Shown here piece after piece: positions 5,667 through 58,509 of a stretch of 58,854 nucleotides of DNA; position 1 is the first letter of the stretch; each line of letters opens with the position of its first letter. Made by a program: the position numbers and the translations under genes. Origin of the DNA: Anaeroplasmataceae bacterium (GTDB lineage: Bacteria > Bacillota_I > Bacilli_A > Acholeplasmatales > Anaeroplasmataceae); contig JAIDKZ010000039.1 of NCBI GenBank assembly GCA_029051735.1, positions 1-58,854 of the forward strand. Direction: 5' to 3'. The notes beneath the pieces are model-generated. The model saw only the letters and a list, made by a program, of their open reading frames with translations, did not search any database and had not been told where the DNA came from.

Positions 5667-5676
5667 GTGTGGGAAA

Positions 5677-6636: not shown

Positions 6637-6647
6637 GATGTGATAAA

Positions 6648-8211: not shown

Positions 8212-8216
8212 TTTTT

Positions 8217-9466: not shown

Positions 9467-9480
9467 AGGGGGAACTTCCT

Positions 9481-16364: not shown

Positions 16365-16375
16365 AGGTTAAGAAT

Positions 16376-17722: not shown

Positions 17723-17723
17723 A

Positions 17724-24080: not shown

Positions 24081-24163
24081 AATTTTCTTTTGCTTTTTTT
24101 GATTTTCCTTTTCTACAATTTAATGTATAATTAATATAATGATTTTAATTGGAGGTTTATAAT

Positions 24164-35321: not shown

Positions 35322-35371
35322 GTACAATGGATTTATATGAATTCATAGATGAATGTATTGAGGTGAATGAA

Positions 35372-40354: not shown

Positions 40355-40386
40355 AGTCACTGATACTTTGTCAGTGACTTTTTTTG
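40355..40386 (+). terminator. Intrinsic terminator
   Basis: 9-bp stem agtcactga (40355-40363) / tcagtgact (40371-40379), then T7. Confidence 0.8.
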
Positions 40387-40469
40387 CTTAAAATTGGAAA
40401 TTATAAATAAATATTTATACTTTTGTCGAAAAATATCTTAAGTTGGTCATATTTTTACTCTTTAAACCA

Positions 40470-40498
40470 TTGACAACCATAGGTTAGCATGGTATACT
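40470..40498 (+). promoter_or_regulatory. Near-consensus sigma-A promoter of the giant-lipoprotein island
   Basis: TTGACA (40470-40475), 17 nt, TGgTATACT (extended -10; hexamer 40493-40498). It lies inside the 5' extension of the ORF-track call, which argues for the start at 40570. Confidence 0.75.
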
Positions 40499-40569
40499 TA
40501 AAAATGTATCGTAAAGCGTTTTCATTAAAGTGGTTTGATGTGAATACTTTATATAGAAAGGGTGAAAAT

Positions 40570-43500
40570 ATGAAAAAGAAAAAATTTTTTCTAGGGGTAG
40601 CACTTGCCGCAACAGCATTAGGGTTAGCAGCTTGTAGTGGTAAAAAGGACCCAACGCCAAATCCAGGGGATGATAATCCACCAGTAGTACAAGAATTTGT
40701 TGTACAATTCAATACAGGAACAGGCGGATCCAGTGTTGCTTCTCAAACAGTAAAAGCAGGGGAGAAAGTAAAGAAACCTGCACAAGATCCAACTAGAGAA
40801 AACTATGTGTTTGATGGTTGGTATAAAGATTCTGGATATGTGACAGAATATGATTTTAATTCTGAAGTGAACAAAAGTTTTACTATTTATGCTAAATGGA
40901 AACCAGTTCAGCAAGAAGTTAATAAATATAGTGTAACATATAATAAAAACAATCATGGAGCAGATACAGCTTCATTAACAGATGTTACAGCATTACCAGC
41001 AGAGTTACCAGTATTAAGTGAAGAAGGCTGGATTTTTGGTGGCTGGTATTATGACACTAATTTTGACAATAAAGCAAATGGTGGAGATGAAATTTCAGCA
41101 AACACTATTTTGTATGCGAAGTGGACAAAAGATGGATCAGATACTCCAGAACCAGTTACAAAATATAGTGTAACATTTGATAAGAAAGGTCATGGAGCAG
41201 ATACAGCTTCATTAACAGATGTTACAGCATTACCAGCAGAGTTACCAGTATTAAGTGAAGAAGGCTGGATTTTTGGTGGCTGGTATTATGATTCAAGCTT
41301 TGACAATAAAGCAAATGGTGGAGATGCCATTACTAAGAATACCACTTTATATGCGAAGTGGAGTGAAGAAGTTGAGGGACCAATTGAGCTTACTCAAATT
41401 CAAATTAGTCCTGAGTCCGTTTCTATAGTTCAAGGTCAAACCAGTCAGTTATCTGTTTTATATACACCTCATAATGCACAAGACTCTGATAAAGTAATTA
41501 CTTGGTCAAGTTCAAATGAGAATGTAGCTACTGTTGATCAATCAGGACTTGTTTCTGCAGTAGCAGTAGGAAATGCAACTATCACTGCAACTTCTGCAAA
41601 TGGAAAAGTTTCTACTTGTTCAGTTACAGTTACAGAGCAAAGTGTTCCTCTTAGAGATTTTACAATTCAAGTAGGTGATGGTAACACAGATCGTGTTACA
41701 TTAACTCCTACACATAGCACAGAGACTTTAGTTGCAAAATTGAATCCATCTAATGCTACAGGAGTAAAAATTGTTTGGACTTCTTCTGATCCTGCAATTG
41801 CAAAGGTTACTCCAAATGATGAAAATGGGTTAGAAGCAACTGTAGAAATGTTGTTACAAGGCACAGAACAAATTACAATCACTGCAACTGTTGTTGGTGA
41901 TGAGACTAAAACAGCTTCTGTATTCTGTACAGCAGATACTTATTATGGAACAATTATTAAGGAAGAAAAAGCTCCATTAATTTTAAATGAAACATTTGTA
42001 AACTATGATGCAAACGCTAAATTGCCTGAATGGAGTGGCGCTTGGGGAACTAAGGGTGTTTATGGTGCTGCTGGAGATGGAGCAACATATGATACACACT
42101 ACGTTAGTATTTTACATAATGATCAAAACGGAAATAACAGAGCTACACTTGTAGATCCAGATGGTTCAAGTGTTTCTGGTGGTTCTGCAAGATTAGTGGT
42201 AGATTATGGCAAAGTTGATGGAACAATTATTGGTTATGCAAATGTAAGATTCTCTAATCCAGGTACTTCATGGGCATTTATGCAATTCAATGGTGTAAGT
42301 GCTAATAAATCTGGAGAGGTTTTAGGATTAAGATTAGCTGAAAAAGTTAAGAATGATAAAAAATATTTAGTTCATTATCGTTTAGATGGTGGCACTGATA
42401 CATTACCACAAGATGCTTCAGGTCAAGATATTGCATTACAAGTAGTTGATGGTGGTACACTTCGTATTTACTATGAGTTCACTTGGGATGAAACAAAAGA
42501 GGTTTATTTAGCATCTATCATTATCAACGGAACACAATATTTAAAAGATGTTGAAACATCAATTAAAGAATTTAGAGGTATTCAATTTGTATCAAGTAAT
42601 AAGGCTAATAAGAGTGTATCTGTGGATAATATTGCAGTAGCAAATAATCCAGTTGGTCTTGATAAAACACAAGAAAAACTTACAGCTTCAATAACTGATT
42701 TATATAATCAATTAACTGCAGTTGAAGAAACTTATACAGAAGAGAATAAAGCTCTATTAGATGAAATGTTTGCAAAAGCTAAAGCAGACATTGCTGCAGT
42801 AGCAGTTACAGACACTGTAACACTTTTAGAAGCTAAAGCACAGGCAAATGAAATTTATTCATTAGCTGTTCAAGCTATGAATGCTGTTGAAACAAAAGCA
42901 GATACAGCTTTAAATGATGCAAAGGCAGCTGCAACTGATGAATTGAATGGTTATGTTAATTCTTCTGATTATACAATTAATAAAGTAGAATATGATGCTG
43001 CAATAGAGGCAGGTTTAACTGCAATTGCAAATGCAAAAACAGAAGATGCAGTTGCATTAGCATTAGTTAATGCAAAGGCAGTAATTGATGAAATACAAAA
43101 TGATGCAACAGCATTAGATGCGATAAAGACTGCTGCAATAGAAGAATTAAGTTCTTTTGAAGGTGGATCAGATAACTTTACAATTACCACAACTTTACAA
43201 TTGAAACAATCTGATGGCACAACACATTCTACTCAGTATTCTAATGTATCTACTTATCAAAATGCTTATCAAGAAGGTGTTCGTTTAATTACAACTGCTT
43301 CAGAAAAGCCAGCAAATCAAACTGCATCTTATTTAGAGGCTGTTGCTGAAATAGAAGCACAGTTGGCTAGTGCTAAAGAACAAATCACAAGATGTAGCAA
43401 TAATGATGAAATGTTGGCAGAAATCAAATCTGTAGCTCAAAATCACATTAATCGTTATAGAGCTGATGAAAGAACAGCAGATAAGATTGCAGATTGTGAA

Positions 43501-45789
43501 GTTGAGCCTGGTCAACCAGGATATTATGATAAGGATGTCATTTTACAAGAATTAGCAAACGAAATCAAATTAGGTTATGATAATATTGAATCCTTTGTGG
43601 TTTATGACAGAATTCAAGCAGAAGTAACTAAAATAGAGGATGTTATTGATACATTTATTAAGTCTTTTTCTGATGTACCTTTTGATGATTTAAAATCTGA
43701 TTTGTTAAATGAATTACAAACTTATTATAATGATAAGATTGATGGTCAAACAAATGCAGAGATGTTAGCAGAGGTTGAAGAAGCTTATAATGCTGGAGTA
43801 TCTGCAATGAATGCTATAACTTCTGGTAAAGCAGTTCTAAGTAATGCATATTCTAAAGCTAAAGATAGTATTGATGTGCATTTTGACAAATATGTAAGAT
43901 TTGCTGAATTAGAGTTAGAAGCAGAAACTCAAAAAGCTTTAATTCAAAATGATACAGTAAAAGCCGAAATTGATTCAATCTGTACTGAAGCAAAAGCTCA
44001 ATTAACTGTAAAAGTTGAAGAAGATAATTGCCAAATGAATGATCTTGCTGCAATTACAAATCAAGCTAAAGCAGATATGGCAGAAAAAGTTGCAACGCTT
44101 AAGGCAACAAAATATACAATTACTTTAAAAGATACCAATGGTAATGTATTAAAAGATAACCTAATGGTATTATATGGTGAAGATTTCTCTTTAGCAGATT
44201 TACATGTAACAGCAAAGACAATTGTTCGTGCAACTTATATGGTAGAAAATGTGGAAACTGAAATTGATGATTCAACTGAAATTACTGTTTATGATAATAT
44301 GGAAATTACAGTTACTACACAGGATATTGATGCTTTCGAAGGTAAGATTAATTGGACTTCTCCACTTGAAGTTACTGAACAATTAGGTGATCCTTTTGAT
44401 GGTATAAACAATTCATTATTCTCATTGAGTATTCCTAATGCTTTATATGTGAATGGTACTACTCATATGGATACTAGTGGTAAAACATTAGCTAATGGTA
44501 AAATAACAATAAATAATAAAGAATTTACTTCAGCTATACGTATGCAGGCACTTGCTTCTGAAAATACTGATATGATTAAATTTGTTGTAAAAGACAATCT
44601 TTCTTCATTATCTTTAGATGTTAAAAAATCAGAGAATAATGGTGCAGGAAATAGAACAGGTCATTTATATTATAATATTAGCAATATTGTAGATGATGCG
44701 AAACTTCCAGTTGATGTAGAGTGGACTGAAATTTCAAGTGATAAAACAGTGGATGTATTAGCTATGTTTACAAATGTAGCAGCAGGAAGTGTAGTTCGTA
44801 TTTATTTTGCAAATACTTCAACAAAGAGTGATGGAACTCCACAAGGAGCAAACTTATTCATTGGTGGTATTGATGCAGTAGTTGCAGAAGATAGAGTTAA
44901 TCAAGATGTTACTATTCATTGGAATGATTTAGATATAACAGAGAATTATCGTTATTTTGAAATTGTAAATGTTCCAGCTGACGTTCCAGCAGTAGGTGGT
45001 AAGTTTGTTAATTGGTACTATATGAATGGTTCTGAAAAAGTAGTTTATACTGGTGGAGAAACATTTGCTTCAGGATCTACAATTGAGATGATGCCAGAAT
45101 ATCAAACATCTAATGTAACAATTACATTGATGAATGGTGATGTGGTATTTAAAGAAATTAAAGATTATATTGAACCAGGTTCTACAGGTATTGAGGCTCC
45201 AATTCAAACTCCTGAGGCTCCAGATGAGAACCATAAATTTGAATATTGGTATGAAACTGATGAGGCAGTACCATTTGATTGGTCAAGTGTTGCAGCAGGA
45301 GATAACAAAACGCTTTATGCACATTTTGGCGAAATTGAAGCTGTTGCAGACCAAATTTTAGCCACTTCATATCCAAATATTTCTAAAGCAACATTAAATC
45401 TTACAAGTGAAGAAAACTATTTCACACTAGTGAGTGGTGGAGGATCATTCACTTATAATGCAGCAGGTGCATTAGAAGCAGGTGGAAGTAGCAGAACTGT
45501 TACTATAACTGCAAACGATAATGTTAAATCTATGACAGTAATTGTTGAACTTTCAATTGGTGATTCATCTGGTTTAACTTCTAAAAATGGTAATATAACA
45601 GTAACAGGAACTGGACAGATTAAGATTGGTACTGATTTTGTAGCAATTTCTAGTCAAGCTGTAGCAGTTGCAAAAAATAAGGTTTCCATAGAGATAACAT
45701 TAACTGCAGGTCAAACTGTTACATTTACACCAAGCACTTCAAGATTGAATTTCTATAGTGCAGTTGCTTCAGTTATGCCAAAGGCTTAA
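40570..45789 (+). CDS. Giant surface lipoprotein 1 (1739 aa): Flg_new repeats, two Big_2 domains, LamG-like domain, helical stalk, CBM-like modules; no catalytic domain recognised
   Basis: MKKKKFFLGVALAATALGLAAC is a signal peptide with lipobox LAAC. AAGGGTGA RBS. Flg_new modules (GWYKD...IYAKW) x3 N-terminal and x2 C-terminal. Big_2 signature ITWSSSNENVATVDQSGLVSAVAVGNATITATS and VWTSSDPAIAKV. Confidence 0.9.
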   Translation: MKKKKFFLGVALAATALGLAACSGKKDPTPNPGDDNPPVVQEFVVQFNTGTGGSSVASQTVKAGEKVKKPAQDPTRENYVFDGWYKDSGYVTEYDFNSEVNKSFTIYAKWKPVQQEVNKYSVTYNKNNHGADTASLTDVTALPAELPVLSEEGWIFGGWYYDTNFDNKANGGDEISANTILYAKWTKDGSDTPEPVTKYSVTFDKKGHGADTASLTDVTALPAELPVLSEEGWIFGGWYYDSSFDNKANGGDAITKNTTLYAKWSEEVEGPIELTQIQISPESVSIVQGQTSQLSVLYTPHNAQDSDKVITWSSSNENVATVDQSGLVSAVAVGNATITATSANGKVSTCSVTVTEQSVPLRDFTIQVGDGNTDRVTLTPTHSTETLVAKLNPSNATGVKIVWTSSDPAIAKVTPNDENGLEATVEMLLQGTEQITITATVVGDETKTASVFCTADTYYGTIIKEEKAPLILNETFVNYDANAKLPEWSGAWGTKGVYGAAGDGATYDTHYVSILHNDQNGNNRATLVDPDGSSVSGGSARLVVDYGKVDGTIIGYANVRFSNPGTSWAFMQFNGVSANKSGEVLGLRLAEKVKNDKKYLVHYRLDGGTDTLPQDASGQDIALQVVDGGTLRIYYEFTWDETKEVYLASIIINGTQYLKDVETSIKEFRGIQFVSSNKANKSVSVDNIAVANNPVGLDKTQEKLTASITDLYNQLTAVEETYTEENKALLDEMFAKAKADIAAVAVTDTVTLLEAKAQANEIYSLAVQAMNAVETKADTALNDAKAAATDELNGYVNSSDYTINKVEYDAAIEAGLTAIANAKTEDAVALALVNAKAVIDEIQNDATALDAIKTAAIEELSSFEGGSDNFTITTTLQLKQSDGTTHSTQYSNVSTYQNAYQEGVRLITTASEKPANQTASYLEAVAEIEAQLASAKEQITRCSNNDEMLAEIKSVAQNHINRYRADERTADKIADCEVEPGQPGYYDKDVILQELANEIKLGYDNIESFVVYDRIQAEVTKIEDVIDTFIKSFSDVPFDDLKSDLLNELQTYYNDKIDGQTNAEMLAEVEEAYNAGVSAMNAITSGKAVLSNAYSKAKDSIDVHFDKYVRFAELELEAETQKALIQNDTVKAEIDSICTEAKAQLTVKVEEDNCQMNDLAAITNQAKADMAEKVATLKATKYTITLKDTNGNVLKDNLMVLYGEDFSLADLHVTAKTIVRATYMVENVETEIDDSTEITVYDNMEITVTTQDIDAFEGKINWTSPLEVTEQLGDPFDGINNSLFSLSIPNALYVNGTTHMDTSGKTLANGKITINNKEFTSAIRMQALASENTDMIKFVVKDNLSSLSLDVKKSENNGAGNRTGHLYYNISNIVDDAKLPVDVEWTEISSDKTVDVLAMFTNVAAGSVVRIYFANTSTKSDGTPQGANLFIGGIDAVVAEDRVNQDVTIHWNDLDITENYRYFEIVNVPADVPAVGGKFVNWYYMNGSEKVVYTGGETFASGSTIEMMPEYQTSNVTITLMNGDVVFKEIKDYIEPGSTGIEAPIQTPEAPDENHKFEYWYETDEAVPFDWSSVAAGDNKTLYAHFGEIEAVADQILATSYPNISKATLNLTSEENYFTLVSGGGSFTYNAAGALEAGGSSRTVTITANDNVKSMTVIVELSIGDSSGLTSKNGNITVTGTGQIKIGTDFVAISSQAVAVAKNKVSIEITLTAGQTVTFTPSTSRLNFYSAVASVMPKA
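40924..41362 (+). repeat. In-frame tandem duplication (period 237 nt = 79 aa) inside lipoprotein 1
   Basis: Unit 1 is 40924-41125 and unit 2 is 41161-41362. A 101-nt stretch is identical in both (40954-41054 = 41191-41291, catggagcagatacagcttc...ggctggtattatga). Confidence 0.95.
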
Positions 45790-45811
45790 AATTAAATAAA
45801 ATTATTAGTAA

Positions 45812-45850
45812 TTTAAAGGAATGACCAATTGATCATGGCATTCCTTTAAA
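45812..45850 (+). repeat. Perfect 12-bp inverted repeat (hairpin) between lipoprotein genes 1 and 2, lacking a U-tract
   Basis: tttaaaggaatg (45812-45823) / cattcctttaaa (45839-45850), 15-nt loop. The downstream sequence is tgctattcttt, not a T-run. Confidence 0.8.
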
Positions 45851-45883
45851 TGCTATTCTTTAAGAAAGAGAAAGGAATAAAAG

Positions 45884-48800
45884 ATGAAGAGAAAGAAGTA
45901 TTTCCTGGGAGTATTATTGTTGGTTTTATCTCTTTGTCTTTTTGCCGCATGTAGTGCAAAAGACAAGGATAAAGATAAAAATCCAGATACACCAGTTGTA
46001 TATGAGTATGTAGTATCTTTTGATACTTTAGGCGGAAATACGATTGCTAGTAAAAGTGTCAAAGAAGGAAATAAAGTGGAAAAACCTACTGATCCAGTAA
46101 GAAGCGGCTATACATTTACGGGTTGGTATAAAAATAAAAGTTGTACAGAGGAATTTGATTTTGAAACAGAAATACGTTCTAATACAATTTTGTATGCTGG
46201 ATGGATTGCTGCAAGTCACACTGTAAGTTTTGAAAGTAATGGTGGAAGCAGCGTTGCTCCAGTTACTGTTGAACATGGTAAACATTGTCCACGACCAGAA
46301 AATCCAACAAGAAGTGGTTATAATTTTGTTGGATGGTTTAAAGATAGTGAATGTACAATCCCATGTGATTTTATTAATGGTATTATTATTTCAGATTTAA
46401 CTTGTTATGCGAAATGGACAGCTAAATCTGTAGATCCTAATCATTTAACTGTAGAATTTAATTCTAAAGGTGGATCAATTGTTGCTGATATTACAGATAT
46501 TGTTTCTGGAAGCAAAATTCAAAAGCCTGCTGATCCAGTGAGAAAGGGTTATACATTTGTTGGTTGGTTTAAGAATGAGGATGGCACATTAGATGATCCA
46601 TTTGATTTTGAAAATGAACCAATTGTGGAAAGTATGACTTTATTAGCAGTATGGAGTCCAAATAGTGTTACCATCACTTTAAAAGATTCATTGTCTAAAG
46701 CTACCATTGGGACAATTTCTACTAAATATGAGCAATTATTAGAAAGACCAGAAGATCCTAAAAAGAGTGGATATAAATTTGTTGGTTGGTCTACAAAGGA
46801 AGATGAATATGATCCATTTGATTTTGATTCAAGTGTTGTAACAGATTTGACTATCCTTTATGCATTCTTTACTGTGGATTCATCTGCTCCTATCGTTAAT
46901 TGTACAGTACAATTTAAAAATGGTGAAGAGGTGTATGATACAAAAACAGTACAACAGGGATTTAGAGTTGAACAACCTACAACTCCTACAAATGGTGATT
47001 TGAAATTTACAGGTTGGTATACAGACCCTGATTGTAAGTTATCTTCAAAATTTGATTTTAATAGAGTTATATCAGATGATTTAATTTTATATGCTGGTTG
47101 GGTTAATGAATCTGTTGGTCCAGTCAATGAATATATTGTAAAATTTGATACAGATGGTGGTACTACGATTGTAGCTCAAAAAATTACAGTAGGTGGAAAA
47201 GTTACTAAACCAGAAAATCCAATAAAATATGGTTATGATTTTGTTGGTTGGTTTGAACATGAAAGTAGTATAGAATATGATTTTAATTTAGTTGTGAATC
47301 ATTCTTTTACATTGTATGCGAAGTGGGAAAAGAATAATCAGCAAGATGATGTTATTACAACATTTAATTTTGCTGGATTTAATACATTAGCTTCAAGTAA
47401 TTTAGATTCTAGCACTGGAAAAACAAATAAAGATTTAACAATTGATCAGTTTAAAGTTTTAATGGGCGTAAAAGCAACAGCAACAACTTTAAATACACAA
47501 GGAAAAAATATTGAATTTACATTAACTGGTAAGATTACAAATAGTATTAAGGTTGTTGGTTCTGGTGGTTCAACAAATAATACTACTACAGTAACCTTAA
47601 TGAAATGGAATGGAACAGAGTATGTTCACTATGCTGATTTAGGATCAACTGGCAATAAGGTTTCTAAGATATTTGAGGCTGTTGATTTAGAGGCTGGTAA
47701 TTATCGCTTGGATACAGATAAATCATTAGTTATAACAGTTTTCACTTTGACTGAAATAAATAAAGAAGCTGCAATAAATACTTATACAATTACTTTTAAT
47801 AGTTTAAAAGGTTCTGATATTGACTCTCAGATTATTGCTGAAGGAAAATTCGTGCAGAAACCTATTGATCCTGTTCGTGAAGGTTATGATTTTAAAGGTT
47901 GGTATACAGATCCTGGTTGTAATACAAAATTTGATTTTTCAACTCCTGTTACAAAGGATTTAGAATTATATGCTTTATGGGAAGAGGCTGCAATTCCTGA
48001 TGATGTTACAAAATATACAGTTCATTTTATAACTGGCTTTGAAACAACTTTACCAGATAAGGTTGTTGCAGAAGGAAGAGGATTTATTGCTCCTGAAATT
48101 ACAAGATTTGGATATACTTTAGAAGGTTGGTATACAGATACAAACTTTAATCATGTTTATAATTTTTCAACCCCAGTTTATGGTGATTTAACTTTATATG
48201 CACATTGGGCAATTGCTGAATATAAAGTTACTTTAATTGGTACAAGTGATTCTATTATGGTCACTCATGGTCAAAAAGTTCCTACTTTAGCAAATCCATC
48301 TAAAATTGGATATACATTTGGTGGTTGGTATACAGATAATTCTTATAGTGAATTATTTGATTTTAATACAATTGTAACTTCTCCAATCTCTATTTTTGCT
48401 AAATGGGTTAAAAATGATTCTAATAATGATGAATTAGATACAGGAGAACTTGAAGGTGGAGAAGGTCAAATTGGTCAGGTTGGTGCTGTGCAAATTGTTG
48501 ATGTGGTTGGACAAATTGAGGCAGCATATATTACCTTTAAAAAGGTTTCAAGTGTATTAAATATAAGTGATTATACAGTGACTATACGTAATACAGATAG
48601 TGCTACAGCACAGGTATTAGATGAGAAGAATTTATATTTTAGAGAATACAATGGCTTATTACGTGCTGATATTATGGGATTACCAGCAGGTACTTATGAG
48701 GCGGTTCTTACTCCTAAGGATAATACATCTGCAGCACCATCAAGCTGTGTGTTCAAGGTTGGTGCATATGACCGTTCTGGTTATGCTCACTTTAATTATA

Positions 48801-51613
48801 CAGATGGTGTAGGTGCTTACCATGATGATGGTTCCTTAAAAGAGAATGCAATCGTTCTTTATGTTACAGATGAAAATAAAAATACAGTTGAGTTATCTTA
48901 TAAAGGTACTACAGTTAAAGGTATTGGAAATATTTTAAATTCTGTTGGTGCTGATGTTGGTACTGGATTGGCTGCAAATGGTGGAACGGCAAATACGAAC
49001 CAAGGTATAATTAAAAAATTAGCAGAAGATAATATTCCACTTGTAGTGCGTTTTGTAGGTTGTGTTTCTGATTCTGGTTTGAAAAAGAAAGCTCCATTTA
49101 GTGCTGCTAGTACTCCATTAATTGAAGGCTTAACTATATATAATTCTACAGGAAATGGTGGAACAGCTGGAGATAACGGACATATGGCTCGTATCAAGTC
49201 TGGTAAGGATGTTACATTAGAAGGATTAGGAGAAGATGCTGTAATTGATGGATGGGGATTCCATTATATGGCTGAAAGCTCAAGCCCAACTTTAGGTAAG
49301 AGTTTTGAGGTTCGTAATTTAACATTTATCAATACGCCAGAGGATGCGATTGGTATGGAGGGTGTTCAAGCTTCTAAAAATGCTTCATCTACTTTAACAG
49401 CAAGTGTTGAAAGATGTTGGATTCATAATAATGAATTCTATGGACCTAATATTTTAAATCCTGCTGAAAGTGACAAAGGTGAAGGAGATGGATCATGTGA
49501 TTTCAAGCGTGGTCAATATTTCACTTGTAGTTACAACTATTTTGAAGGATGTCACAAGACAAATTTAGTTGGTTCTGCAGATTATTCATTACAGTTTAAT
49601 TTAACTTATCATCATAATTATTGGAAATTATGTAAAGCTAGAGGTCCTTTAACTCGTAGAGCAAATGTACATATGTACAATAATGTATTTGAAGGACAGA
49701 CTGATTATGCGATGAATACACGTGCAGATGCTTATATTTATTCTGAATACAATTTATTCTATATGTGTAAAAGCCCACATGGAGTAGAGGGTGGAGCTAT
49801 AAAGAGTTATAATGATTCTATTTCTAGTGCACTTTATAATAAAGGCTCAGCAGCAACTGCTGTAACAAATAAATCTCAAAAGGTAGCAAACAATTGTCAG
49901 TTTAGTGCTGAAAATATTGACTATAGTTCTTTTGATACAGATTCTAAATTATCTTATATTCCAGACAATAAATATATGTTACAAACAAATGTTACAGACG
50001 CGAGAAAGGTTATTGCAGCTATTGGTGGTGTAAGAAAAGATTCATCTTTATCTGCAAAAGATATAACAATGTCACAATTGTCTTATAAACCAAGTTCTGT
50101 TACACCAGTTAAGGTTACAACATATCCTACAACTTTAAATCCAGGAAAATTAAGTAAAACAGTTTATGCGTTTACCTTAGATAAGTCCGCAACTGTAACA
50201 GTATCTTATCCAAGTGATACATTCTCTACAACAGGTGTTTTGGTAAATGAGGCTGGAGAGTGCTTATTAACTGCTAGTGGTAGTGTTGTTTTAAAACCTG
50301 GTACATACATGATTCAACCTGTTAATTTCCAACCAGGTGATAGTAAGAATTTAACAAATGGAACATTTAAAGATTTAAATGTGAATTCAATTCAAATTGA
50401 AGAATATAAATCTGATGAATTTGATCAGCAATTGATTGACGATTATGATGCAAAAGCAGCTTCAATTCCATCAACGATAACCTATTCAAATGAATGTTAT
50501 AAGGCACTTTTAGCTGCAAGATTGGCTTATGAATTATTAAGCGCAGATTTAAAAGAAAGAGTAACAGTTCCTTATGAAACTGTCGTTACTGCAAGAGAAC
50601 GTTATATTGCTTTAGGAAAAGAACATGTAGAGGGATTGATTGATGCGATAGGAACTGTGAATAAAGATAGTGGTGGAAATATTGCAGCAGCAAGAAGGGA
50701 ATATGAGAGTTTAAAGGCAATCGTTCCTGCTATTTTAATTTCAAATTACAATGTTTTAACAGCTGCAGAAACTGCATTTAAAGGCTTTGCAGTTGAATCT
50801 TGTATTGAAAAGATCAATGCAATAGGAATAGTCACACTTGCATCAGGTCCAGCAATCCAAGCTGCTAGAAATGAATTTGATAGTTTAAATGATGAACATA
50901 TTCCATTGATTACTAACTATCAAGTTCTTCTAGATGCTGAAGAGAAATATGAAAGTCTTCTTGCAGTTCAAAATGTTATTGAATTATTAGATGATGTAGA
51001 TTTGACAAATTTAAATTCTTTAAAAACTACTATGAATGCTTACAATGCATTAACGACAAGTGAAAAAGCTCAAGTACCTAATACAAGCAAATTATCAGAT
51101 GTGAAGGTTGCTTATGCAAGTTTACTTATTGATGCAATTGGAACTGTTTCAGTAACCTCAGGTGTTGCAATAACAGAAGCAGAAGCAGCATACAATGCTT
51201 TAGATACTGCTGAAAAAGCAAAAGTAACAAATTATGCTAAATTAGTTGATGCTAAGGAAGCATATGCAGATTTATTAAATCGTCAGATTGAGTGTACATT
51301 TATTGGTGGCTCTCCATCAAATAGCATGATAAGTGTTAGCGGTGGCTCTGCTAAAAATACAAGTGTAACAATCGCAGGTAAAACATATGAAAGTGGTGTG
51401 AAAATTAATTCTAAGGTAACGATATCCTTTACTACTGAGGTGGCAAGAAAATTAGTTTTACATATTGCTGCTGGTGGTTCTTTAGGATTAGATGGAACAC
51501 AATACACAGATAGTGATAATGATGGAGTAATTGAGATAGAGCTTTCTGCAGGTTCTCATGAAATTAAGAAAAATGGTTCAGAAACTGCATTATATGCTTT
51601 AATCCTTCAATAA
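45884..51613 (+). CDS. Giant surface lipoprotein 2 (1909 aa): nine Flg_new repeats, CBM-like module, FN3-like plus PL1 pectate-lyase beta-helix, helical repeats, C-terminal CBM-like module
   Basis: MKRKKYFLGVLLLVLSLCLFAAC lipoprotein signal. Nine GW[YF]...LYA.W modules. PL1 signature: CWIHNNEF, GDGSCDFKRG, FTCSYNYFEGCHKTNLVGSAD, LTYHHNYW...ARGPLTRRANVHMYNNVF. Confidence 0.9.
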   Translation: MKRKKYFLGVLLLVLSLCLFAACSAKDKDKDKNPDTPVVYEYVVSFDTLGGNTIASKSVKEGNKVEKPTDPVRSGYTFTGWYKNKSCTEEFDFETEIRSNTILYAGWIAASHTVSFESNGGSSVAPVTVEHGKHCPRPENPTRSGYNFVGWFKDSECTIPCDFINGIIISDLTCYAKWTAKSVDPNHLTVEFNSKGGSIVADITDIVSGSKIQKPADPVRKGYTFVGWFKNEDGTLDDPFDFENEPIVESMTLLAVWSPNSVTITLKDSLSKATIGTISTKYEQLLERPEDPKKSGYKFVGWSTKEDEYDPFDFDSSVVTDLTILYAFFTVDSSAPIVNCTVQFKNGEEVYDTKTVQQGFRVEQPTTPTNGDLKFTGWYTDPDCKLSSKFDFNRVISDDLILYAGWVNESVGPVNEYIVKFDTDGGTTIVAQKITVGGKVTKPENPIKYGYDFVGWFEHESSIEYDFNLVVNHSFTLYAKWEKNNQQDDVITTFNFAGFNTLASSNLDSSTGKTNKDLTIDQFKVLMGVKATATTLNTQGKNIEFTLTGKITNSIKVVGSGGSTNNTTTVTLMKWNGTEYVHYADLGSTGNKVSKIFEAVDLEAGNYRLDTDKSLVITVFTLTEINKEAAINTYTITFNSLKGSDIDSQIIAEGKFVQKPIDPVREGYDFKGWYTDPGCNTKFDFSTPVTKDLELYALWEEAAIPDDVTKYTVHFITGFETTLPDKVVAEGRGFIAPEITRFGYTLEGWYTDTNFNHVYNFSTPVYGDLTLYAHWAIAEYKVTLIGTSDSIMVTHGQKVPTLANPSKIGYTFGGWYTDNSYSELFDFNTIVTSPISIFAKWVKNDSNNDELDTGELEGGEGQIGQVGAVQIVDVVGQIEAAYITFKKVSSVLNISDYTVTIRNTDSATAQVLDEKNLYFREYNGLLRADIMGLPAGTYEAVLTPKDNTSAAPSSCVFKVGAYDRSGYAHFNYTDGVGAYHDDGSLKENAIVLYVTDENKNTVELSYKGTTVKGIGNILNSVGADVGTGLAANGGTANTNQGIIKKLAEDNIPLVVRFVGCVSDSGLKKKAPFSAASTPLIEGLTIYNSTGNGGTAGDNGHMARIKSGKDVTLEGLGEDAVIDGWGFHYMAESSSPTLGKSFEVRNLTFINTPEDAIGMEGVQASKNASSTLTASVERCWIHNNEFYGPNILNPAESDKGEGDGSCDFKRGQYFTCSYNYFEGCHKTNLVGSADYSLQFNLTYHHNYWKLCKARGPLTRRANVHMYNNVFEGQTDYAMNTRADAYIYSEYNLFYMCKSPHGVEGGAIKSYNDSISSALYNKGSAATAVTNKSQKVANNCQFSAENIDYSSFDTDSKLSYIPDNKYMLQTNVTDARKVIAAIGGVRKDSSLSAKDITMSQLSYKPSSVTPVKVTTYPTTLNPGKLSKTVYAFTLDKSATVTVSYPSDTFSTTGVLVNEAGECLLTASGSVVLKPGTYMIQPVNFQPGDSKNLTNGTFKDLNVNSIQIEEYKSDEFDQQLIDDYDAKAASIPSTITYSNECYKALLAARLAYELLSADLKERVTVPYETVVTARERYIALGKEHVEGLIDAIGTVNKDSGGNIAAARREYESLKAIVPAILISNYNVLTAAETAFKGFAVESCIEKINAIGIVTLASGPAIQAARNEFDSLNDEHIPLITNYQVLLDAEEKYESLLAVQNVIELLDDVDLTNLNSLKTTMNAYNALTTSEKAQVPNTSKLSDVKVAYASLLIDAIGTVSVTSGVAITEAEAAYNALDTAEKAKVTNYAKLVDAKEAYADLLNRQIECTFIGGSPSNSMISVSGGSAKNTSVTIAGKTYESGVKINSKVTISFTTEVARKLVLHIAAGGSLGLDGTQYTDSDNDGVIEIELSAGSHEIKKNGSETALYALILQ

Positions 51614-51631
51614 AATTATAGGTAAAGAAAT

Positions 51632-54600
51632 ATGAAAAAAAGAAAATTTATTATAGCAGGGCTAGCTTTATCAGCCCTGCTAGGCTTTACTGCTTGTAAA
51701 GCTGAACCAGAAGAAAAGCCTGATGTGCCACCTATTATTGATCCAACTTCAACTTTTGAAGTTGAGTTTGATACAAATGGTGGAACCAATATTTTATCAC
51801 AATGGATTTCAAAAGATAATACAGTTGCAGTGCCATCTGAACCAACCAAAGAAGGATTCATTTTTGCTGGTTGGTATAAGGATAAAAATTGTACTGAACA
51901 ATTTGATTTTTCAACAAAAGTAACAGAAAAATTGACTCTTTATGCAAAATGGGAGGAAATAGGAGAACTCTTTTATTTAAGTTTTAATTCAAATGGTCAT
52001 GGAAAGAATCCAAACACAATTGAGGTTAATAAAATAAACTCATTACCAGAATTGAAGGATGATGGGTATACATTTGTTGGTTGGTATTATGACCAAGAGT
52101 TTAAGAATAAGGTGAATATTGGAGATCGTTTAACAGAAAATAAAACTATATTTGCAAAATGGGAAATAAAGAAATTCACTGTTCAATTTGATACGAATGG
52201 CGGAACCACAACTGCTTCTCAAATTATAGAATATGGTAAGCTTTGTCCAAGACCAGCTAACCCTACAAAAGAAGGATTTATTTTTGCTGGTTGGTATAAG
52301 GATAGTGATTTTACTCTTCCATGTGATTTTATCAATGGAGTAATCATATCTGATTTAATTTGTTATGCAAAATGGTTGCCAAAATCAGCTGAGGGAGAAA
52401 CTTTAACTGTAGAATTTAATTCTAAATTGGGGACTAAGGTTGAACCAATTACAGGAATTATTGCAGGATCTACAATTGAGGAGCCATCACAACCAACAAG
52501 AACAGGTTATACGTTTGATGGTTGGTATAAAAATATTGATGGAACATTATCTGTCCCATTTGATTTTGAAAACGATCTAGTAACAGAGAATATGGTTCTA
52601 TTAGCTAAGTGGATTCCAAATGTAGTTAAAGTAACTTTGAAAGATTCTTTGACAGATGAAGTCATTGAAGAATTAGAGGGAAGATATGAACAATTTTTGA
52701 TGCAACCAGCAATTCCTGCTGATAAGGAGAACTATCGTTTTGTTGGTTGGTCTGTTCAAAAAACAAATTTTGTAGAATTTCACTTTACATCGTTATTAAC
52801 AGAAGATATCACAATATATGCTTTCTATGAAGCTGTCTCTCCTGATCAAACATTTGAAGTTAAGTTTATTTCAACAGGGACAACAGTTTTTTATTCGACT
52901 CACGTAAAACAGAATGGATTAGTTACAGAACCAACTCAAAAACCTGTAAGAGATGGTTATAATTTTGTTGGTTGGTCTACTAGTGCCTCTACATATGTAG
53001 CATTTAATTTTGCCACTTCTAAAATAACATCTGATATTCTAATCTATGCTTATTGGACTAAGAGTGATGAACCAGATGTTGAGAAGTATACAATAACATT
53101 CTATAGTAGTGCGGATATAGTATTTAAAACAGAAACCATACAAAAAAATGAGCAAGCACAAGAACCAACACCAGCTCCTAAAAAGGAAGGATATAAATTT
53201 GCAGGTTGGTACACAGATGCTCTATTGGATACAAAATATAACTTTTCTACACCTGTAACTAGTAATTTGAATTTATATGCGAAGTGGGAGGAGGACCAAT
53301 CACAAGAAGATATTGTAACACCTTTTGACTTTGTAAAATTCAATACAGAAGCTAGTGCCCATTTGACTTCTGGAAAAACAAACATAGCTATAACAATAGA
53401 TAAGTTTACTGTAAGTCAAGGCGTAAAATGTGATGATAAGATGCTAAATACGCAAGGTAAGACAATTTCCTTTACTTTGAATGGAACGATTACAAATTCA
53501 ATTAAACTAGTTGGTACTGGAGGTTCTACTACAAAGGATACAATTGTAAAATTATTAAAGAGTAATGGGACTTCTTATGTTGAAGTAAAAACTCTAGGAA
53601 CAGTTACAAATGGCGTTGCTTTAAATGTAACAGAAAGTAATTTAGAAGCAGGAAATTATCAGTTGACTACATCTGCTGCTTTAAAAATTACTGAATTTGT
53701 TTTAACTGAAAGTAGTAAACCTACTGCACCTACTTCCTTTACAGTTTCCTTTGACTCTTTAGGTGGATCCACTGTGTCTTCTATAGAAGTTGCAAATGGA
53801 TCTAATGCTATAGAGCCTACTGCACCTACAAAGGATGGATTTGAATTTAAGGGATGGTTTACAGATAAAGAATGTACAAAGGCATTTGATTTTTCAACTC
53901 CAATAAAAGAAGATATGTTGTTATATGCGAAGTGGGAAGAAGAGGTTATCCCGCCAGATGCAATAACATACGTTGTATCTTATGTAACCAATTGTAACAC
54001 TACAATAGAAGATAAAATTGTTAGAGAAGGCAGAACAATATCTGCACCAACAAATTTAACAAAAGATGATCATAAATTTGGTGGGTGGTATACTGATGCA
54101 CAATTTACAAACGCTTATGACTTTACAAAACCTATTTATTCTAATTTAACTTTATATGCAAAATGGATTGAGGTTATAACTTATACAGTAACATTTGATG
54201 TAAATGGTTATGGAGATCAGCCAGCAGCATTAACAAAGGTTACAGAATTGCCAGAATTACCTAAATTGATTTCATCTGAACGTAGTTTTGGTGGTTGGTA
54301 TTATAATGCAGCATGTACAGAGAAAGCTTTTGTAGGCGATGTATTAGAATCAGATGTAACATTATATGCAAAGTGGAATGATAAATCTATAGTAGAAGTA
54401 ACTGCTGCTGAAGGACATTTAGAAACTGCTTATTTAGAGTGGAAAGAACTAGATGGTGCAAAAGATTATAATGTTTATTACAAAAAGTCTAATGAAACTG
54501 ATGGAAAATATATAGCATTAGACCAGATGCTCATTCGAGAATATCCTAATAATTATCGTGCAGATGTTTTGGGATTAGCAGCTGGGAAGTATACACTTAA

Positions 54601-55945
54601 GGTAGTTCCAGTAGTTGGAACTGATGAAGATGGAAGTGCAGCCGCTATAGAAGATGTTATAGTTTCAGCTCATGACAGAAGCGGTTTTGGATTCTCTCAA
54701 AATTCTTTATTAAAAACTTCATCAGGAGCTTATAATGAGGATGGTACACTTCGTGCAGGCGCACAAGTCATTTACGTTACTGCAAAGAATGCAAAGACTG
54801 TAACTGCTCAAATTACTAATGGTGGCACAACAACTACAGTAACTGGTTTCCAATCTATTCTTGATGCAAAACAAAAGAAAGGCAACACAGATATTTTAGA
54901 TTTCCGAATTATTGGTGAAATAAAATTATCCGATTTGGATAAGATTTCTAGTAGTGCTGAAGGAATTCAAATTAAAGGAGCAGCTAATTATCAAGATATG
55001 AGTATTACAATTGAAGGTGTAGGAGAAGATGCCACAGTTAATGGCTTTGGATTCTTAATCCGTAATTGTGGTAATGTGGAAATGCGAAACTTTGGTATTG
55101 TTAACTTTATGGATGATGGTATCTCTATAGATACAAACAATTGTAATTTATGGATTCATAATATAGATTTCTTTTATGGTTCTCCTGGTGGAGATTCAGA
55201 TCAAGCTAAAGGAGATGGATCTTTAGATATAAAAGGACACTCTAGATATATTACAGCTTCTTATAATCACTTTTGGGATTCAGGTAAATGTAATTTAATG
55301 GGTATGAAGAGTGAGGCAACAGAGGATTACATCACATACCATCATAACTGGTATGATCATTCTGACTCTCGTCATCCAAGAATTCGTACTTGTAGTGTTC
55401 ATGTATATAACAACTATTTTGATGGGAATTCTAAGTATGGAGTTGGTGTTACAATGGGAGCTTCTGCTTTTGTTGAAAACAATTACTTCAGAAATTGTCA
55501 TAATCCTATGCTAAGTTCTAATCAAGGTACAGATGCTTTAGGTGATGGAACATTCTCAGGTGAAACTGGTGGTATTATTAAAGCTTACGGAAACTATATT
55601 GAAGGTGGAAATCCAACAATATGGTATAGTCAAAACAATACAAGTTTTGATGCTTATCTTGCTTCATCTAGAGATGAAATTGTACCTAGTACAGTTAAGG
55701 CTTTATCAGGAGGTACAGGTTATAACAACTTTGATACTTCTTCAGATTTTTATTCTTACAATGTTGATACGGCAGAGGTTGCTAAAGAAAATGTAATGAA
55801 ATATGCTGGTCGTATTAATGGTGGAGATTTGCAGTTTGTATTTGATAATTCTAAAGAAGATACAAACTATGGAGTTATCCCTGAACTAAAACAAATGGTT
55901 GTTTCTTATAAAACAACACTTGTAAGAATATTAGGCGAAAAATAA
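51632..55945 (+). CDS. Giant surface lipoprotein 3 (1437 aa): ten Flg_new repeats, CBM-like module, FN3-like plus PL1 pectate-lyase domain
   Basis: MKKRKFIIAGLALSALLGFTAC lipoprotein signal. Starts 18 nt after gene 2. PL1 signature: LWIHNIDFF, GDGSLDIKGH, ITASYNHFWDSGKCNLMG, ITYHHNWYDHSDSRHPRIRTCSVHVYNNYF. Confidence 0.9.
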   Translation: MKKRKFIIAGLALSALLGFTACKAEPEEKPDVPPIIDPTSTFEVEFDTNGGTNILSQWISKDNTVAVPSEPTKEGFIFAGWYKDKNCTEQFDFSTKVTEKLTLYAKWEEIGELFYLSFNSNGHGKNPNTIEVNKINSLPELKDDGYTFVGWYYDQEFKNKVNIGDRLTENKTIFAKWEIKKFTVQFDTNGGTTTASQIIEYGKLCPRPANPTKEGFIFAGWYKDSDFTLPCDFINGVIISDLICYAKWLPKSAEGETLTVEFNSKLGTKVEPITGIIAGSTIEEPSQPTRTGYTFDGWYKNIDGTLSVPFDFENDLVTENMVLLAKWIPNVVKVTLKDSLTDEVIEELEGRYEQFLMQPAIPADKENYRFVGWSVQKTNFVEFHFTSLLTEDITIYAFYEAVSPDQTFEVKFISTGTTVFYSTHVKQNGLVTEPTQKPVRDGYNFVGWSTSASTYVAFNFATSKITSDILIYAYWTKSDEPDVEKYTITFYSSADIVFKTETIQKNEQAQEPTPAPKKEGYKFAGWYTDALLDTKYNFSTPVTSNLNLYAKWEEDQSQEDIVTPFDFVKFNTEASAHLTSGKTNIAITIDKFTVSQGVKCDDKMLNTQGKTISFTLNGTITNSIKLVGTGGSTTKDTIVKLLKSNGTSYVEVKTLGTVTNGVALNVTESNLEAGNYQLTTSAALKITEFVLTESSKPTAPTSFTVSFDSLGGSTVSSIEVANGSNAIEPTAPTKDGFEFKGWFTDKECTKAFDFSTPIKEDMLLYAKWEEEVIPPDAITYVVSYVTNCNTTIEDKIVREGRTISAPTNLTKDDHKFGGWYTDAQFTNAYDFTKPIYSNLTLYAKWIEVITYTVTFDVNGYGDQPAALTKVTELPELPKLISSERSFGGWYYNAACTEKAFVGDVLESDVTLYAKWNDKSIVEVTAAEGHLETAYLEWKELDGAKDYNVYYKKSNETDGKYIALDQMLIREYPNNYRADVLGLAAGKYTLKVVPVVGTDEDGSAAAIEDVIVSAHDRSGFGFSQNSLLKTSSGAYNEDGTLRAGAQVIYVTAKNAKTVTAQITNGGTTTTVTGFQSILDAKQKKGNTDILDFRIIGEIKLSDLDKISSSAEGIQIKGAANYQDMSITIEGVGEDATVNGFGFLIRNCGNVEMRNFGIVNFMDDGISIDTNNCNLWIHNIDFFYGSPGGDSDQAKGDGSLDIKGHSRYITASYNHFWDSGKCNLMGMKSEATEDYITYHHNWYDHSDSRHPRIRTCSVHVYNNYFDGNSKYGVGVTMGASAFVENNYFRNCHNPMLSSNQGTDALGDGTFSGETGGIIKAYGNYIEGGNPTIWYSQNNTSFDAYLASSRDEIVPSTVKALSGGTGYNNFDTSSDFYSYNVDTAEVAKENVMKYAGRINGGDLQFVFDNSKEDTNYGVIPELKQMVVSYKTTLVRILGEK

Positions 55946-55950
55946 AAATT

Positions 55951-55979
55951 ATAGCGTGCTAAAGCGCGCTATTTTTTTA
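55951..55979 (+). terminator. Intrinsic terminator closing the lipoprotein island
   Basis: 9-bp stem atagcgtgc (55951-55959) / gcgcgctat (55964-55972) with one G-U pair, loop taaa, then T7. Confidence 0.75.
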
Positions 55980-57973: not shown

Positions 57974-58020
57974 AGTGTTTCCCCCTAGGGTATGATATGC
58001 CTATAGGGGGGAATTTTATT

Positions 58021-58509
58021 ATGAGAAAGTTATTGTTCATTGGAATCATCATAATGGTGATTATCGTGGCGATTTTAAATATAAAGGATGATAAAAAAGA
58101 AATTCGTGTTCGTGTTATACCAAATAGTGATGAGGCATTCGATTTAAGGATAAAAGAAAAAGCAAAAGATATTACTACATACTATTTGAAAGAAGCATAT
58201 GACAAGGATTATAATACTTTTGAAAATAATATTAGAACTACGATGAAAAAATTTGAAAGTACATTAAAAAAAGAATTAAAACAGAATGTTGAAGTTAGTC
58301 TTAGTAATCATACCTTATACAATAAAACATATAATAATAGTGCAGTTAAAAATACTTCGGAATTAACTTTATATGTTATCTTAGGAAGTGGAAATGGTTC
58401 CAACTGGTGGGGGACAGTGTATCCTGAATTTCTTTTAGTAAATAGTAGTGAAGAAGTGAAATATGAAAGTTTAATTTTAAGTATTTTTAATAAATTAAAA
58501 GGAGAATAA
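58021..58509 (+). CDS. spoIIR: SpoIIR-like protein (stage II sporulation signalling protein family)
   Basis: N-terminal TM/signal helix, IRVRVIPNSDEAFDLRIKEKAKD (compare IRLRILANSDS..DQ.LK) and LGSGNGSNWWGTVYPEF (compare GANWWCVLFPPLC). Neighbour of ywlC/tsaC as in Bacillus. AGGGGGGAA RBS. Confidence 0.75.
   Translation: MRKLLFIGIIIMVIIVAILNIKDDKKEIRVRVIPNSDEAFDLRIKEKAKDITTYYLKEAYDKDYNTFENNIRTTMKKFESTLKKELKQNVEVSLSNHTLYNKTYNNSAVKNTSELTLYVILGSGNGSNWWGTVYPEFLLVNSSEEVKYESLILSIFNKLKGE

Follow-up and report, generated by a model that had tools for sequence, protein, structure and literature searches.

A predicted operon for putative lipid-anchored pectate lyases and a giant partner protein in an Anaeroplasmataceae bacterium

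Gut bacteria of the Anaeroplasma lineage are usually regarded as small-genome commensals that are minor in fiber breakdown, and a stretch of DNA from an Anaeroplasmataceae bacterium raises the question of what such an organism might do with three consecutive genes for giant predicted surface proteins. The stretch (assembly GCA_029051735.1, contig JAIDKZ010000039.1, positions 1 to 58,854 of the forward strand; 58.9 kb, hereafter the window) had been given a first-pass annotation, which proposed that these genes, here called genes 1, 2 and 3, encode a surface set in which a non-catalytic partner and two polysaccharide lyases of family PL1 act on pectin. Our analysis supports this proposal, and we consider it probable that the predicted operon encodes a lipid-anchored set of surface proteins that bind and cleave pectin; judged from its genes, the host probably eats plant pectin. 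This interpretation is favored because the catalytic and Ca2+-binding residues of the lyases are intact, because gene 2 carries a carbohydrate-binding module (CBM) of family CBM77, and because a separate middle module of the lyases resembles the CBM of a pectate lyase. Conservation of the unit across diverged lineages supports it further, as does the report that an Anaeroplasma-related band rose on pectin (PMC2822772).

The catalytic assignment of genes 2 and 3 is secure at the level of family, and the PL1 domains annotated at first pass were confirmed in both. Pfam model PF00544 (Pectate_lyase_4) scores 69.4 bits in gene 2 and 80.7 bits in gene 3 against a cutoff of 24 (E-values in Table 1), and the best PDB matches are all PL1 pectate lyases (3vmv at E=1e-26 for gene 3, and E=4e-20 for the best match of gene 2); a Beta_helix match in gene 3 is weak (E=0.0065). 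The motifs WIHN, GDGS.D.K and R.P..R singled out earlier are present in the sequences. When genes 2 and 3 were aligned to PelC (1air) and Bacillus Pel (3vmv), both were seen to keep equivalents of PelC D131, E166 (as Asp), D170, K172, K190, R218 and R223, the D131 equivalent of gene 2 being placed by the motif EDAIGME across an insertion of about 12 aa. These seven positions, and with them the catalytic Arg and Asp residues, are invariant among 117 members of the gene 2 family and 121 members of the gene 3 family, and the catalytic arginine lies in the context ARGPLTR in gene 2 and SRHPRIR in gene 3.

Two positions depart from the classical pattern, in both cases as a trait of the families and not as a lesion. 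The equivalent of PelC R245 is Arg throughout the gene 2 family, whereas gene 3 has Thr and its family either Thr or Ala. The vWiDH motif (PelC W142, D144 and H145) is replaced by WIHN in both genes and by W[IV]H[NHD] across both families. This motif sits away from the PL1 active site, and the change appears to be a subfamily trait that implies no catalytic loss. We rejected the idea that WIHN marks an inactivated enzyme, as the change is family-wide and the active-site residues are intact.

Both catalytic modules have many relatives. At least 8000 homologues of the gene 3 module (518 aa) were found, the best 120 being 54-79% identical over 94-100% of the module; those 120 come from Lachnospira, other Clostridia, Treponemataceae and Anaeroplasmataceae, usually with a CBM77 and often with a dockerin. 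For the gene 2 module (636 aa) at least 791 homologues were found, which share 44-72% identity with it and belong to [Bacteroides] pectinophilus, Lachnospira, Ruminococcus, Oscillospiraceae and Candidatus Coproplasma. By sequence, then, the catalytic modules are ordinary gut enzymes belonging to very common families, and the lyases themselves, as close relatives of thousands of gut sequences, add little to what is already known. The lyases are 55-72% identical to clostridial proteins and the neighboring M16 peptidase only about 40%, which points to an exchange of catalytic modules that may have taken place between lineages.

Comparison with described systems separates what is shared from what is new. 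Multimodular PL1 plus CBM77 proteins of gut and rumen Clostridia (the cellulosomal PL1/CBM77 protein of Ruminococcus flavefaciens, 5fu5, and relatives in Lachnospira, [Bacteroides] pectinophilus and Oscillospiraceae) belong to the same catalytic-module families, with 45-72% identity over the whole 518-636-aa module including its N-terminal beta-sandwich, and usually with a CBM77. Many of these relatives carry a dockerin, whereas the proteins described here have an N-terminal lipobox anchor and 9-10 Flg_new repeats, and, unlike the clostridial set, the lyases lie in a conserved cassette with a giant partner that is apparently non-catalytic. The classical enzymes PelC (1air), BsPel (1bn8) and Bacillus sp. 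N16-5 Pel (3vmv) share the Ca2+ ligands, K172, K190, R218 and R223, but are distant (120-240 residues aligned by phmmer, with E-values from 1e-26 to 3e-14) and differ at the vWiDH motif and, in the gene 3 family, at R245; here the single domain is embedded in a protein of 157-206 kDa.

All three products are predicted lipoproteins, gene 1 of 1739 aa (mature 186 kDa, pI 4.4, with no recognized catalytic domain), gene 2 of 1909 aa (mature 206 kDa) and gene 3 of 1437 aa (mature 157 kDa). The lipobox cysteine first read in each N-terminus was upheld (Cys22 of LAAC in gene 1, Cys23 of FAAC in gene 2, and Cys22 of FTAC in gene 3). A lipobox was called where a K/R-containing n-region and a hydrophobic core were followed by [LVIF][ASTVI][GAS]C within the first 35 residues; a PROSITE-like regular expression was used for homologues, and the three N-termini of the window were compared by eye with PS51257, the pattern of which they fit. 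None of the three has an LPXTG motif, in agreement with the first reading, and neither lgt nor lsp is found within the window. Lipoboxes are present in 50 of 102 full-length-looking members of the gene 3 family and in 11 of 106 of the gene 2 family, so that lipobox versions, as predicted by this pattern, are common among homologues of gene 3 and rarer among those of gene 2. Pfam recognizes Flg_new in all three proteins, and a hidden Markov model (HMM) built from the proteins themselves finds nine Flg_new repeats in gene 2 and ten in gene 3, exactly as first counted, but only four solid repeats and one marginal one (E=0.06) in gene 1, for which five had been given.

Genes 2 and 3 share an order of modules in which a Flg_new array is followed by the middle module, three further Flg_new repeats, an Ig/FN3-like beta-sandwich and the PL1 domain. 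Gene 2 extends beyond PL1 with a beta module, a presumably helical repetitive region and the CBM77 (PF18283 match of 62 bits at aa 1802-1904, the cutoff being 25; PDB 5fu5 at 2.4e-5), a family cited as homogalacturonan-binding (PMC13501991). The repetitive region has no Pfam family match and a moderately helix-favoring composition that is weakly suggestive, none of its 60-aa windows reaching the helix flag. The FN3-like label given earlier to the domain before PL1 rests on a weak Ig-like Pfam match. A Pfam search at E<=1 of nine uncovered segments and of the Ig/FN3-like segment of gene 3 returned nothing usable, and NCBIfam gave just repeat-driven internalin and neuraminidase matches far under their cutoffs.

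The middle modules of genes 2 and 3 (about 140 aa) are 53% identical to each other and have no Pfam family; a PDB-sequence profile search was also empty. An AlphaFold2 (AF2) model of the module (predicted local distance difference test score, pLDDT, 78) is matched best by Foldseek to 8wc1 and 8x8h (template-modeling (TM) scores 0.64 and 0.56), both labeled 'carbohydrate binding domain of a putative pectate lyase', and then to CBM6, CBM32 and CBM35, with the CBM77 structure 5fu5 at rank 50; hhalign to CBM77 gives 28% probability. A search of the literature for 8WC1 found nothing specific. The first-pass annotation had a single CBM-like module recurring in all three proteins; this resolves into three things that look related but are distinct, namely the CBM77 of gene 2, a distantly CBM77-like pair in gene 1, and the separate CBM-fold module of genes 2 and 3. 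BLAST between modules did not connect the middle module with those of gene 1, or either of them with CBM77, and these relations emerged from hhalign and fold comparison only.

What gene 1 contributes is less obvious. Its two Big_2 domains, annotated at first pass, were recovered by Pfam. The most conserved part of the protein (245 aa) follows them and had been described as LamG-like; an AF2 model of moderate quality (pLDDT 67, predicted TM-score 0.74) makes it a concanavalin-type jelly roll. When 1.84 billion representative proteins were searched in full with a profile of this domain, a family of just 129 clusters emerged, in which a lipobox is found in 102 of 113 full-length-looking members. 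Among 48 members scanned, it co-occurs with Flg_new in 25, Big_2 in 10, CBM77 in three, GH88 in two and PL1 in two. A word-indexed search with the non-repeat part of gene 1 gave five homologues, all five with a lipobox. The segment after the jelly roll has no Pfam or PDB match, and its composition fits the helical stalk first proposed for it; for the corresponding proposal in gene 2 the composition is weakly suggestive, as described above. The C-terminal module has no Pfam match and is only distantly CBM77-like (hhalign probability 82.8%, E=9e-6, against a profile of 197 CBM77 sequences).

We infer that the jelly roll is a glycan-binding accessory domain, although an alternative in which gene 1 is itself an enzyme, its jelly roll an unrecognized polysaccharide lyase or hydrolase and the cassette a set of three enzymes, has to be weighed. 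The top Foldseek neighbors of the model are PL28 ulvan lyase, PL7 glucuronan and alginate lyases, PL18, GH131 and Cip1; polar Q, E, R, Y, R and D residues are at least 90% conserved among the 48 members at about 20% identity, and most members have no other candidate catalytic domain. However, the TM-scores are only 0.4-0.54, lectins and sialidase CBMs follow so closely that they score almost equally, and the model is of the moderate quality noted above. The domain has no conserved His and lacks the PL7 motifs RxELR, QIH and YFKAG, and the few members that pair it with PL1 or GH88 catalytic domains do so in the manner of an accessory module. On balance we regard an enzymatic gene 1 as unlikely and retain the glycan-binding interpretation.

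The three genes form a single predicted operon, in the order promoter, cre-like leader box, gene 1, hairpin, gene 2, gene 3 and terminator. There is one promoter, no internal promoter or strong terminator, and a terminal terminator, and linkage is kept in relatives (loci L011, L085/L086 and L104 in our labeling). The same-strand ORFs of the first reading were recovered by the ORF calls; at 4.3-5.7 kb and about 30% GC, a chance origin of such open frames is impossible. The start of gene 1 was re-examined, and since an upstream ATG at 40489 falls within the -10 region and the ATG at 40570 is preceded by a GGGTGA ribosome-binding site, the latter is taken as the start of the 1739-aa product. The near-consensus promoter and the strong terminator described earlier both hold, the former as an 11/12 match that is the best site of the region and of which both hexamers are kept in the closest relative, L011. 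The 18-nt spacing between genes 2 and 3 was also as described. A second terminator (40355-40379) closes the M16 peptidase gene upstream.

The linkage of the genes survives considerable divergence. In L011, genes 1 and 2 have counterparts of 72% and 88% identity at the same locus. In L085 and L086 a gene 1 homologue (38% identity) precedes two lyases, first a gene-3-like one of 1441 aa (54.5%) and next a gene-2-like one (52%) of 2086 aa with a CBM77, so that the order of the lyases is swapped, and the neighborhood is unrelated. A third lineage of gene 1 is found in L104, followed by the hairpin and a 1438-aa gene-3-like lyase (53%). The unit of a gene-1-like gene, hairpin and one or more PL1 lyases thus recurs in three diverged lineages, and linkage that has outlasted both divergence and rearrangement speaks for a joint function of the genes. 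In L081-L084 the gene downstream of the gene 1 homologue is a 417-aa stump with Flg_new repeats only, and judging from these sequences some strains have probably lost the lyase or retain only a truncated one. L083 also encodes a Pel9A-like protein directly upstream of its gene 1 homologue. In more distant Anaeroplasmataceae the cassette is missing beside the M16 peptidase gene, which suggests a variable cassette over longer timescales. A recent horizontally acquired island was considered and rejected, as the GC content of the cassette (0.32-0.35) is within the range of the window (0.26-0.37) and L011 is syntenic; the word 'island' in the first-pass annotation was therefore an overstatement.

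Two further observations concern these relatives. In L081 and L082, within the stretch 15564-18720, the 417-aa Flg_new-only gene has a DDE transposase gene downstream of it, and in L104 the intact 1438-aa gene-3-like lyase (5308-9624) occupies the place that the 417-aa gene has in L081-L084.

The intergenic region between genes 1 and 2 contains a hairpin with identical 9+3-bp arms after every gene 1 homologue examined, though the proteins share only 38% identity. Where the end of the gene is known, the hairpin is 17-27 nt past the stop codon; its loops differ between homologues, and the outer stem covaries (UUU/AAA versus CAU/AUG). The intergenic RNAs fold with free energies (dG) of -16 to -23 kcal/mol and z-scores of -2.5 to -5.7. 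Within the window the arms occur in a single copy, and none were found in shuffled sequence, so that a common genomic repeat was rejected; elsewhere in metagenomes, the sequences that match the arms belong to unrelated hairpins, which are GC-rich and terminator-like. Because the stem is trailed by only three U residues and there are 36 nt to the start of gene 2, we favor an intercistronic RNA element, acting as a putative partial terminator or 3'-end stabilizer; a full terminator or a DNA operator is less favored. An operator accompanied by a separate promoter for gene 2 is unlikely, since the 36 nt before the start codon leave no room for one. The invariance of the arm sequence exceeds what a simple stem would need.

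A second conserved element lies in the 5' leader of gene 1, which is about 95% identical to the L011 leader. This is a box like the catabolite-responsive element (cre) or a LacI-type operator, the core of which, TAAARCGYTTWC, is found within about 100 nt upstream of every gene 1 homologue (L011 and L081-86) and is rare elsewhere in the 106 loci fetched. The sequence GTAAAGCGTTTTCA matches the cre consensus TGWAANCGNTNWCA at 12/14 positions, with the outer TG reversed. The box is a candidate CcpA/LacI-type operator and suggests carbon-source control. An Rfam search of the whole three-gene region at E<=1 gave nothing relevant to the leader or the hairpin. Separately, a block upstream of the -35 hexamer, TTTGTCGAAAAATATCTTAAGTTG (40422-40445), is near-identical in L011 while the flanking intergenic DNA has diverged, and it overlaps a promoter-like site on the minus strand (40429-40400).

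Table 1. Coordinates of the predicted operon, its modules and its cis elements in the window, with the positions of the two cis elements in related loci.
Feature	Position	Strand	Basis or remark
Promoter TTGACA-17-TATACT with TG extension (TTGACA-17-TGgTATACT)	40470-40498	+	sigma-70-type, 11/12, best site of the region
Leader box GTAAAGCGTTTTC, cre-like/LacI-type operator-like	40511-40523	+	sole exact match in the window; 5' leader
Gene 1 ORF	40570-45789	+	1739 aa; upstream ATG at 40489
Gene 1 signal peptide, lipobox LAAC (Cys22)	40570-40635	+	lipobox pattern
Gene 1, three Flg_new repeats (aa 41-265)	40690-41364	+	repeat HMM
Gene 1, two Big_2 Ig-like domains (aa 275-455)	41392-41934	+	Pfam
Gene 1, concanavalin-type jelly-roll domain (aa 456-705)	41935-42684	+	AF2 model
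Gene 1, Pro/Gly-poor, Ala/Glu/Lys-rich region (aa 706-1180)	42685-44109	+	composition only; presumed helical stalk
Gene 1, beta module (aa 1266-1470)	44365-44979	+	hhalign 96.9% to aa 1616-1739
Gene 1, fourth Flg_new repeat (aa 1521-1587)	45130-45330	+	marginal fifth at aa 1448-1501
Gene 1, C-terminal module, distantly CBM77-like (aa 1616-1739)	45415-45786	+	hhalign
Hairpin AAAGGAATGaCCA-loop-TGGCATTCCTTT	45815-45847	+	26 nt past the gene 1 stop codon
Gene 2 ORF	45884-51613	+	1909 aa
Gene 2, six Flg_new repeats (aa 40-482)	46001-47329	+	repeat HMM
Gene 2, middle CBM-fold module (aa 486-630)	47339-47773	+	AF2, Foldseek
Gene 2, three Flg_new repeats (aa 632-842)	47777-48409	+	repeat HMM
Gene 2, Ig/FN3-like beta-sandwich and PL1 domain (aa 865-1330)	48476-49873	+	PF00544 4e-19
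Gene 2, post-catalytic beta module (aa 1331-1500)	49874-50383	+	conserved family architecture; no Pfam match
Gene 2, repetitive region (aa 1501-1795)	50384-51268	+	recurring I..IG.V...Y..L motifs; presumed helical
Gene 2, CBM77 (aa 1796-1909)	51269-51610	+	PF18283 8e-17
Gene 3 ORF	51632-55945	+	1437 aa
Gene 3, seven Flg_new repeats (aa 40-553)	51749-53290	+	repeat HMM
Gene 3, middle CBM-fold module (aa 554-690)	53291-53701	+	similarity to gene 2 copy
Gene 3, three Flg_new repeats (aa 701-916)	53732-54379	+	repeat HMM
Gene 3, Ig/FN3-like beta-sandwich and PL1 domain (aa 920-1437)	54389-55942	+	Pfam 1.5e-22
Intrinsic terminator	55951-55972	+	9-bp stem, T-run
Hairpin in L011	18349-18381
Hairpin in L081-L084	15501-15531
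Hairpin in L085	15739-15770
Hairpin in L086	6049-6080
Hairpin in L090	2223-2255
Hairpin in L104	9656-9688
Hairpin in L105	45-77
Leader box in L011	13057-13068
Leader box in L081/82/84	9946-9957
Leader box in L085	9949-9973		two copies
Leader box in L083	9909-9920	-

The host is best placed by the flanking M16 peptidase, which is 85% identical to that of L011, a mouse-gut Anaeroplasmataceae metagenome-assembled genome (MAG). The corresponding values are 60-76% for other MAGs that carry the labels Anaeroplasmataceae, Mollicutes or Erysipelotrichaceae, 49% for an Acholeplasmatales MAG and only about 40% for Clostridia. By this sequence the host groups with Anaeroplasmataceae and is no typical Gram-positive, so that the initial description of a Gram-positive gut anaerobe has to be amended. 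Anaeroplasma species in culture lack a cell wall, and if the host does too, lipid anchoring and the lack of LPXTG or SLH would be expected rather than odd. An LtaS-like (sulfatase family) gene is located at 35327-37351 of the window and a SpoIIR-like gene at 57997-58509; the LtaS-like gene is present also in a MAG labeled Anaeroplasma bactoclasticum (L005, 61.5% identity). Otherwise the window is housekeeping, as the flanks had been described (among others rpoB, rpoC, the LtaS-like gene, M16 peptidase, NUDIX, prmC, Sua5, dnaB, prfA and ECF transporter subunits).

From the sequences we infer a mechanism in which lipidation, surface exposure, substrate, binding by gene 1 and the roles of the hairpin and box are all predictions. 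All three products would be exported, lipid-modified at the lipobox Cys and tethered to the outer face of the cell membrane, with the arrays of about 70-aa Flg_new repeats, the Ig-like domains and the Pro/Gly-poor, presumably helical segments serving as spacers that project the working modules. Genes 2 and 3 would act as Ca2+-dependent PL1 lyases that cut homogalacturonan by beta-elimination with the conserved Arg as base, while the polymer would be held by the CBM-fold module within the repeat arrays of the lyases and by the C-terminal CBM77 of gene 2. Gene 1 is most likely a surface glycan-binding partner, through its jelly roll and two distantly CBM77-like modules. The hairpin probably acts on RNA, setting the ratio of gene 1 to lyase transcript, and the leader box probably couples expression to carbon source.

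Several findings weigh against this interpretation. No characterized member was found in either lyase subfamily, and there is no close solved structure match, so that lyase activity is extrapolated from distant enzymes; in addition, the vWiDH motif reads W[IV]H[NH] and the R245 equivalent of gene 3 is Thr, both family-wide. As the top structural neighbors of the gene 1 jelly roll are polysaccharide lyases, the non-catalytic status of the protein is unproven, and in L081, L082 and L084 the gene 1 homologue (P0124) is in a context without an adjacent lyase. Genes for uronate catabolism, an oligogalacturonide transporter or a regulator are all absent from the 58.9-kb window. In the cre-like box the outer TG/CA of the consensus is not preserved, and because SpoIIR-like and LtaS-like proteins are encoded in the window, the wall-less state of the host is not established.

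The same surface architecture could also serve a substrate other than dietary homogalacturonan, namely another polymer of the alpha-1,4-galacturonan type such as a Vi-antigen-like microbial capsule, or an acidic glycan of the host or of other microbes. Gene 3 also has a match (6fi2, 2e-7) to VexL, a lyase of PL1-like fold that acts on Vi antigen, and lacks the R245 equivalent that is kept in PelC, in three other solved pectate lyases and in the whole gene 2 family; Anaeroplasma bactoclasticum is generally known as bacteriolytic, and the lack of uronate catabolism genes nearby in the window would fit such a substrate. Against this, the best structural relatives are all pectate lyases with scores far above that of VexL, the nearest lyase homologues are in known pectin-associated taxa (Lachnospira and [Bacteroides] pectinophilus), and CBM77 is named for pectin binding (PMC13501991). 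Moreover, in rats fed 7% apple pectin a 16S band that is 93% identical to An. bactoclasticum appeared or rose (PMC2822772). A substrate of this other kind thus seems improbable, and pectin is preferred. Very improbable is the suggestion that the proteins are mainly internalin-like adhesins or host-interaction factors with secondary lyase domains, for although NCBIfam internalin models match, relatives carry the database name 'InlB B-repeat-containing protein', and Big_2 domains and long stalks are present, the internalin matches are confined to the B-repeat region (187 bits against a cutoff of 1050), Pfam finds no leucine-rich repeat (LRR) domains, and the lyase catalytic residues are conserved family-wide.

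The repeats do belong to the same family as those of Listeria (InlB B-repeat/Flg_new, PF09479), but, in contrast to Listeria internalin, there is no LRR domain here, and the arrays of 4-10 repeats are probably spacers. A closer functional likeness is with the surface layer of Bacteroides polysaccharide utilization loci (for example pectin loci), in which lipid-tethered binders and endo-enzymes that capture a polysaccharide and cut it on the cell surface are likewise co-encoded, an arrangement that is here predicted from the genes. Unlike those loci, there is no SusC/SusD pair, adjacent regulator or transporter, and the proteins show no sequence relationship to theirs and are much larger; should the host lack a wall, as its affiliation leads us to assume, there would be no outer membrane and the anchor would lie in the cytoplasmic membrane.

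We found no paper describing a pectinolytic system or pectate lyases of Anaeroplasmataceae, and a literature search on carbohydrate-active enzymes of the family gave nothing specific. What the analysis adds is the lineage of the host, a conserved cassette whose giant partner protein comes from a small lipoprotein family, and two cis elements that are likewise conserved. A conserved operon for surface lyases of 157-206 kDa would make the Anaeroplasma lineage candidate primary pectin degraders, and would account mechanistically for the increase of Anaeroplasma that has been reported under pectin feeding. Three further items are flagged: the uncharacterized lipoprotein domain family of the jelly roll (129 clusters), which is sometimes accompanied by PL1, GH88 or CBM77; the CBM-fold module, for which Pfam has no family; and an intercistronic hairpin of unusually conserved sequence. 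A bolder proposal, which we hold only tentatively and consider doubtful, is that the unit is a portable and self-contained glycan-harvesting module of Anaeroplasmataceae-type bacteria, that the jelly roll founds a new CBM (possibly lyase) family, and that the hairpin is read by a specific RNA factor. If this were true, the unit would be the functional counterpart, for lipid-tethered surfaces, of the Bacteroides layer of surface glycan-binding protein plus enzyme, and an RNA-binding or processing factor at the hairpin would set the binder-to-enzyme ratio.

Three other ORFs of the window are of note. An 812-aa ORF (13926-16364) fuses in frame a GdpP-type c-di-AMP phosphodiesterase (PAS, GGDEF-like, DHH and DHHA1) to ribosomal protein L9, of which both the N-terminal and the C-terminal domain are present; the two proteins are usually encoded by separate neighboring genes. 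A 323-aa ORF with a TTG start (24149-25120) matches ribosomal L15 (Ribosomal_L27A) in its last 70 residues only, reflecting either a long N-terminal extension or a miscalled start. An 863-aa protein (20-2611) combines AAA_11/AAA_12 helicase domains with an MTES_1575 restriction-endonuclease-like domain and may be defense- or repair-related.

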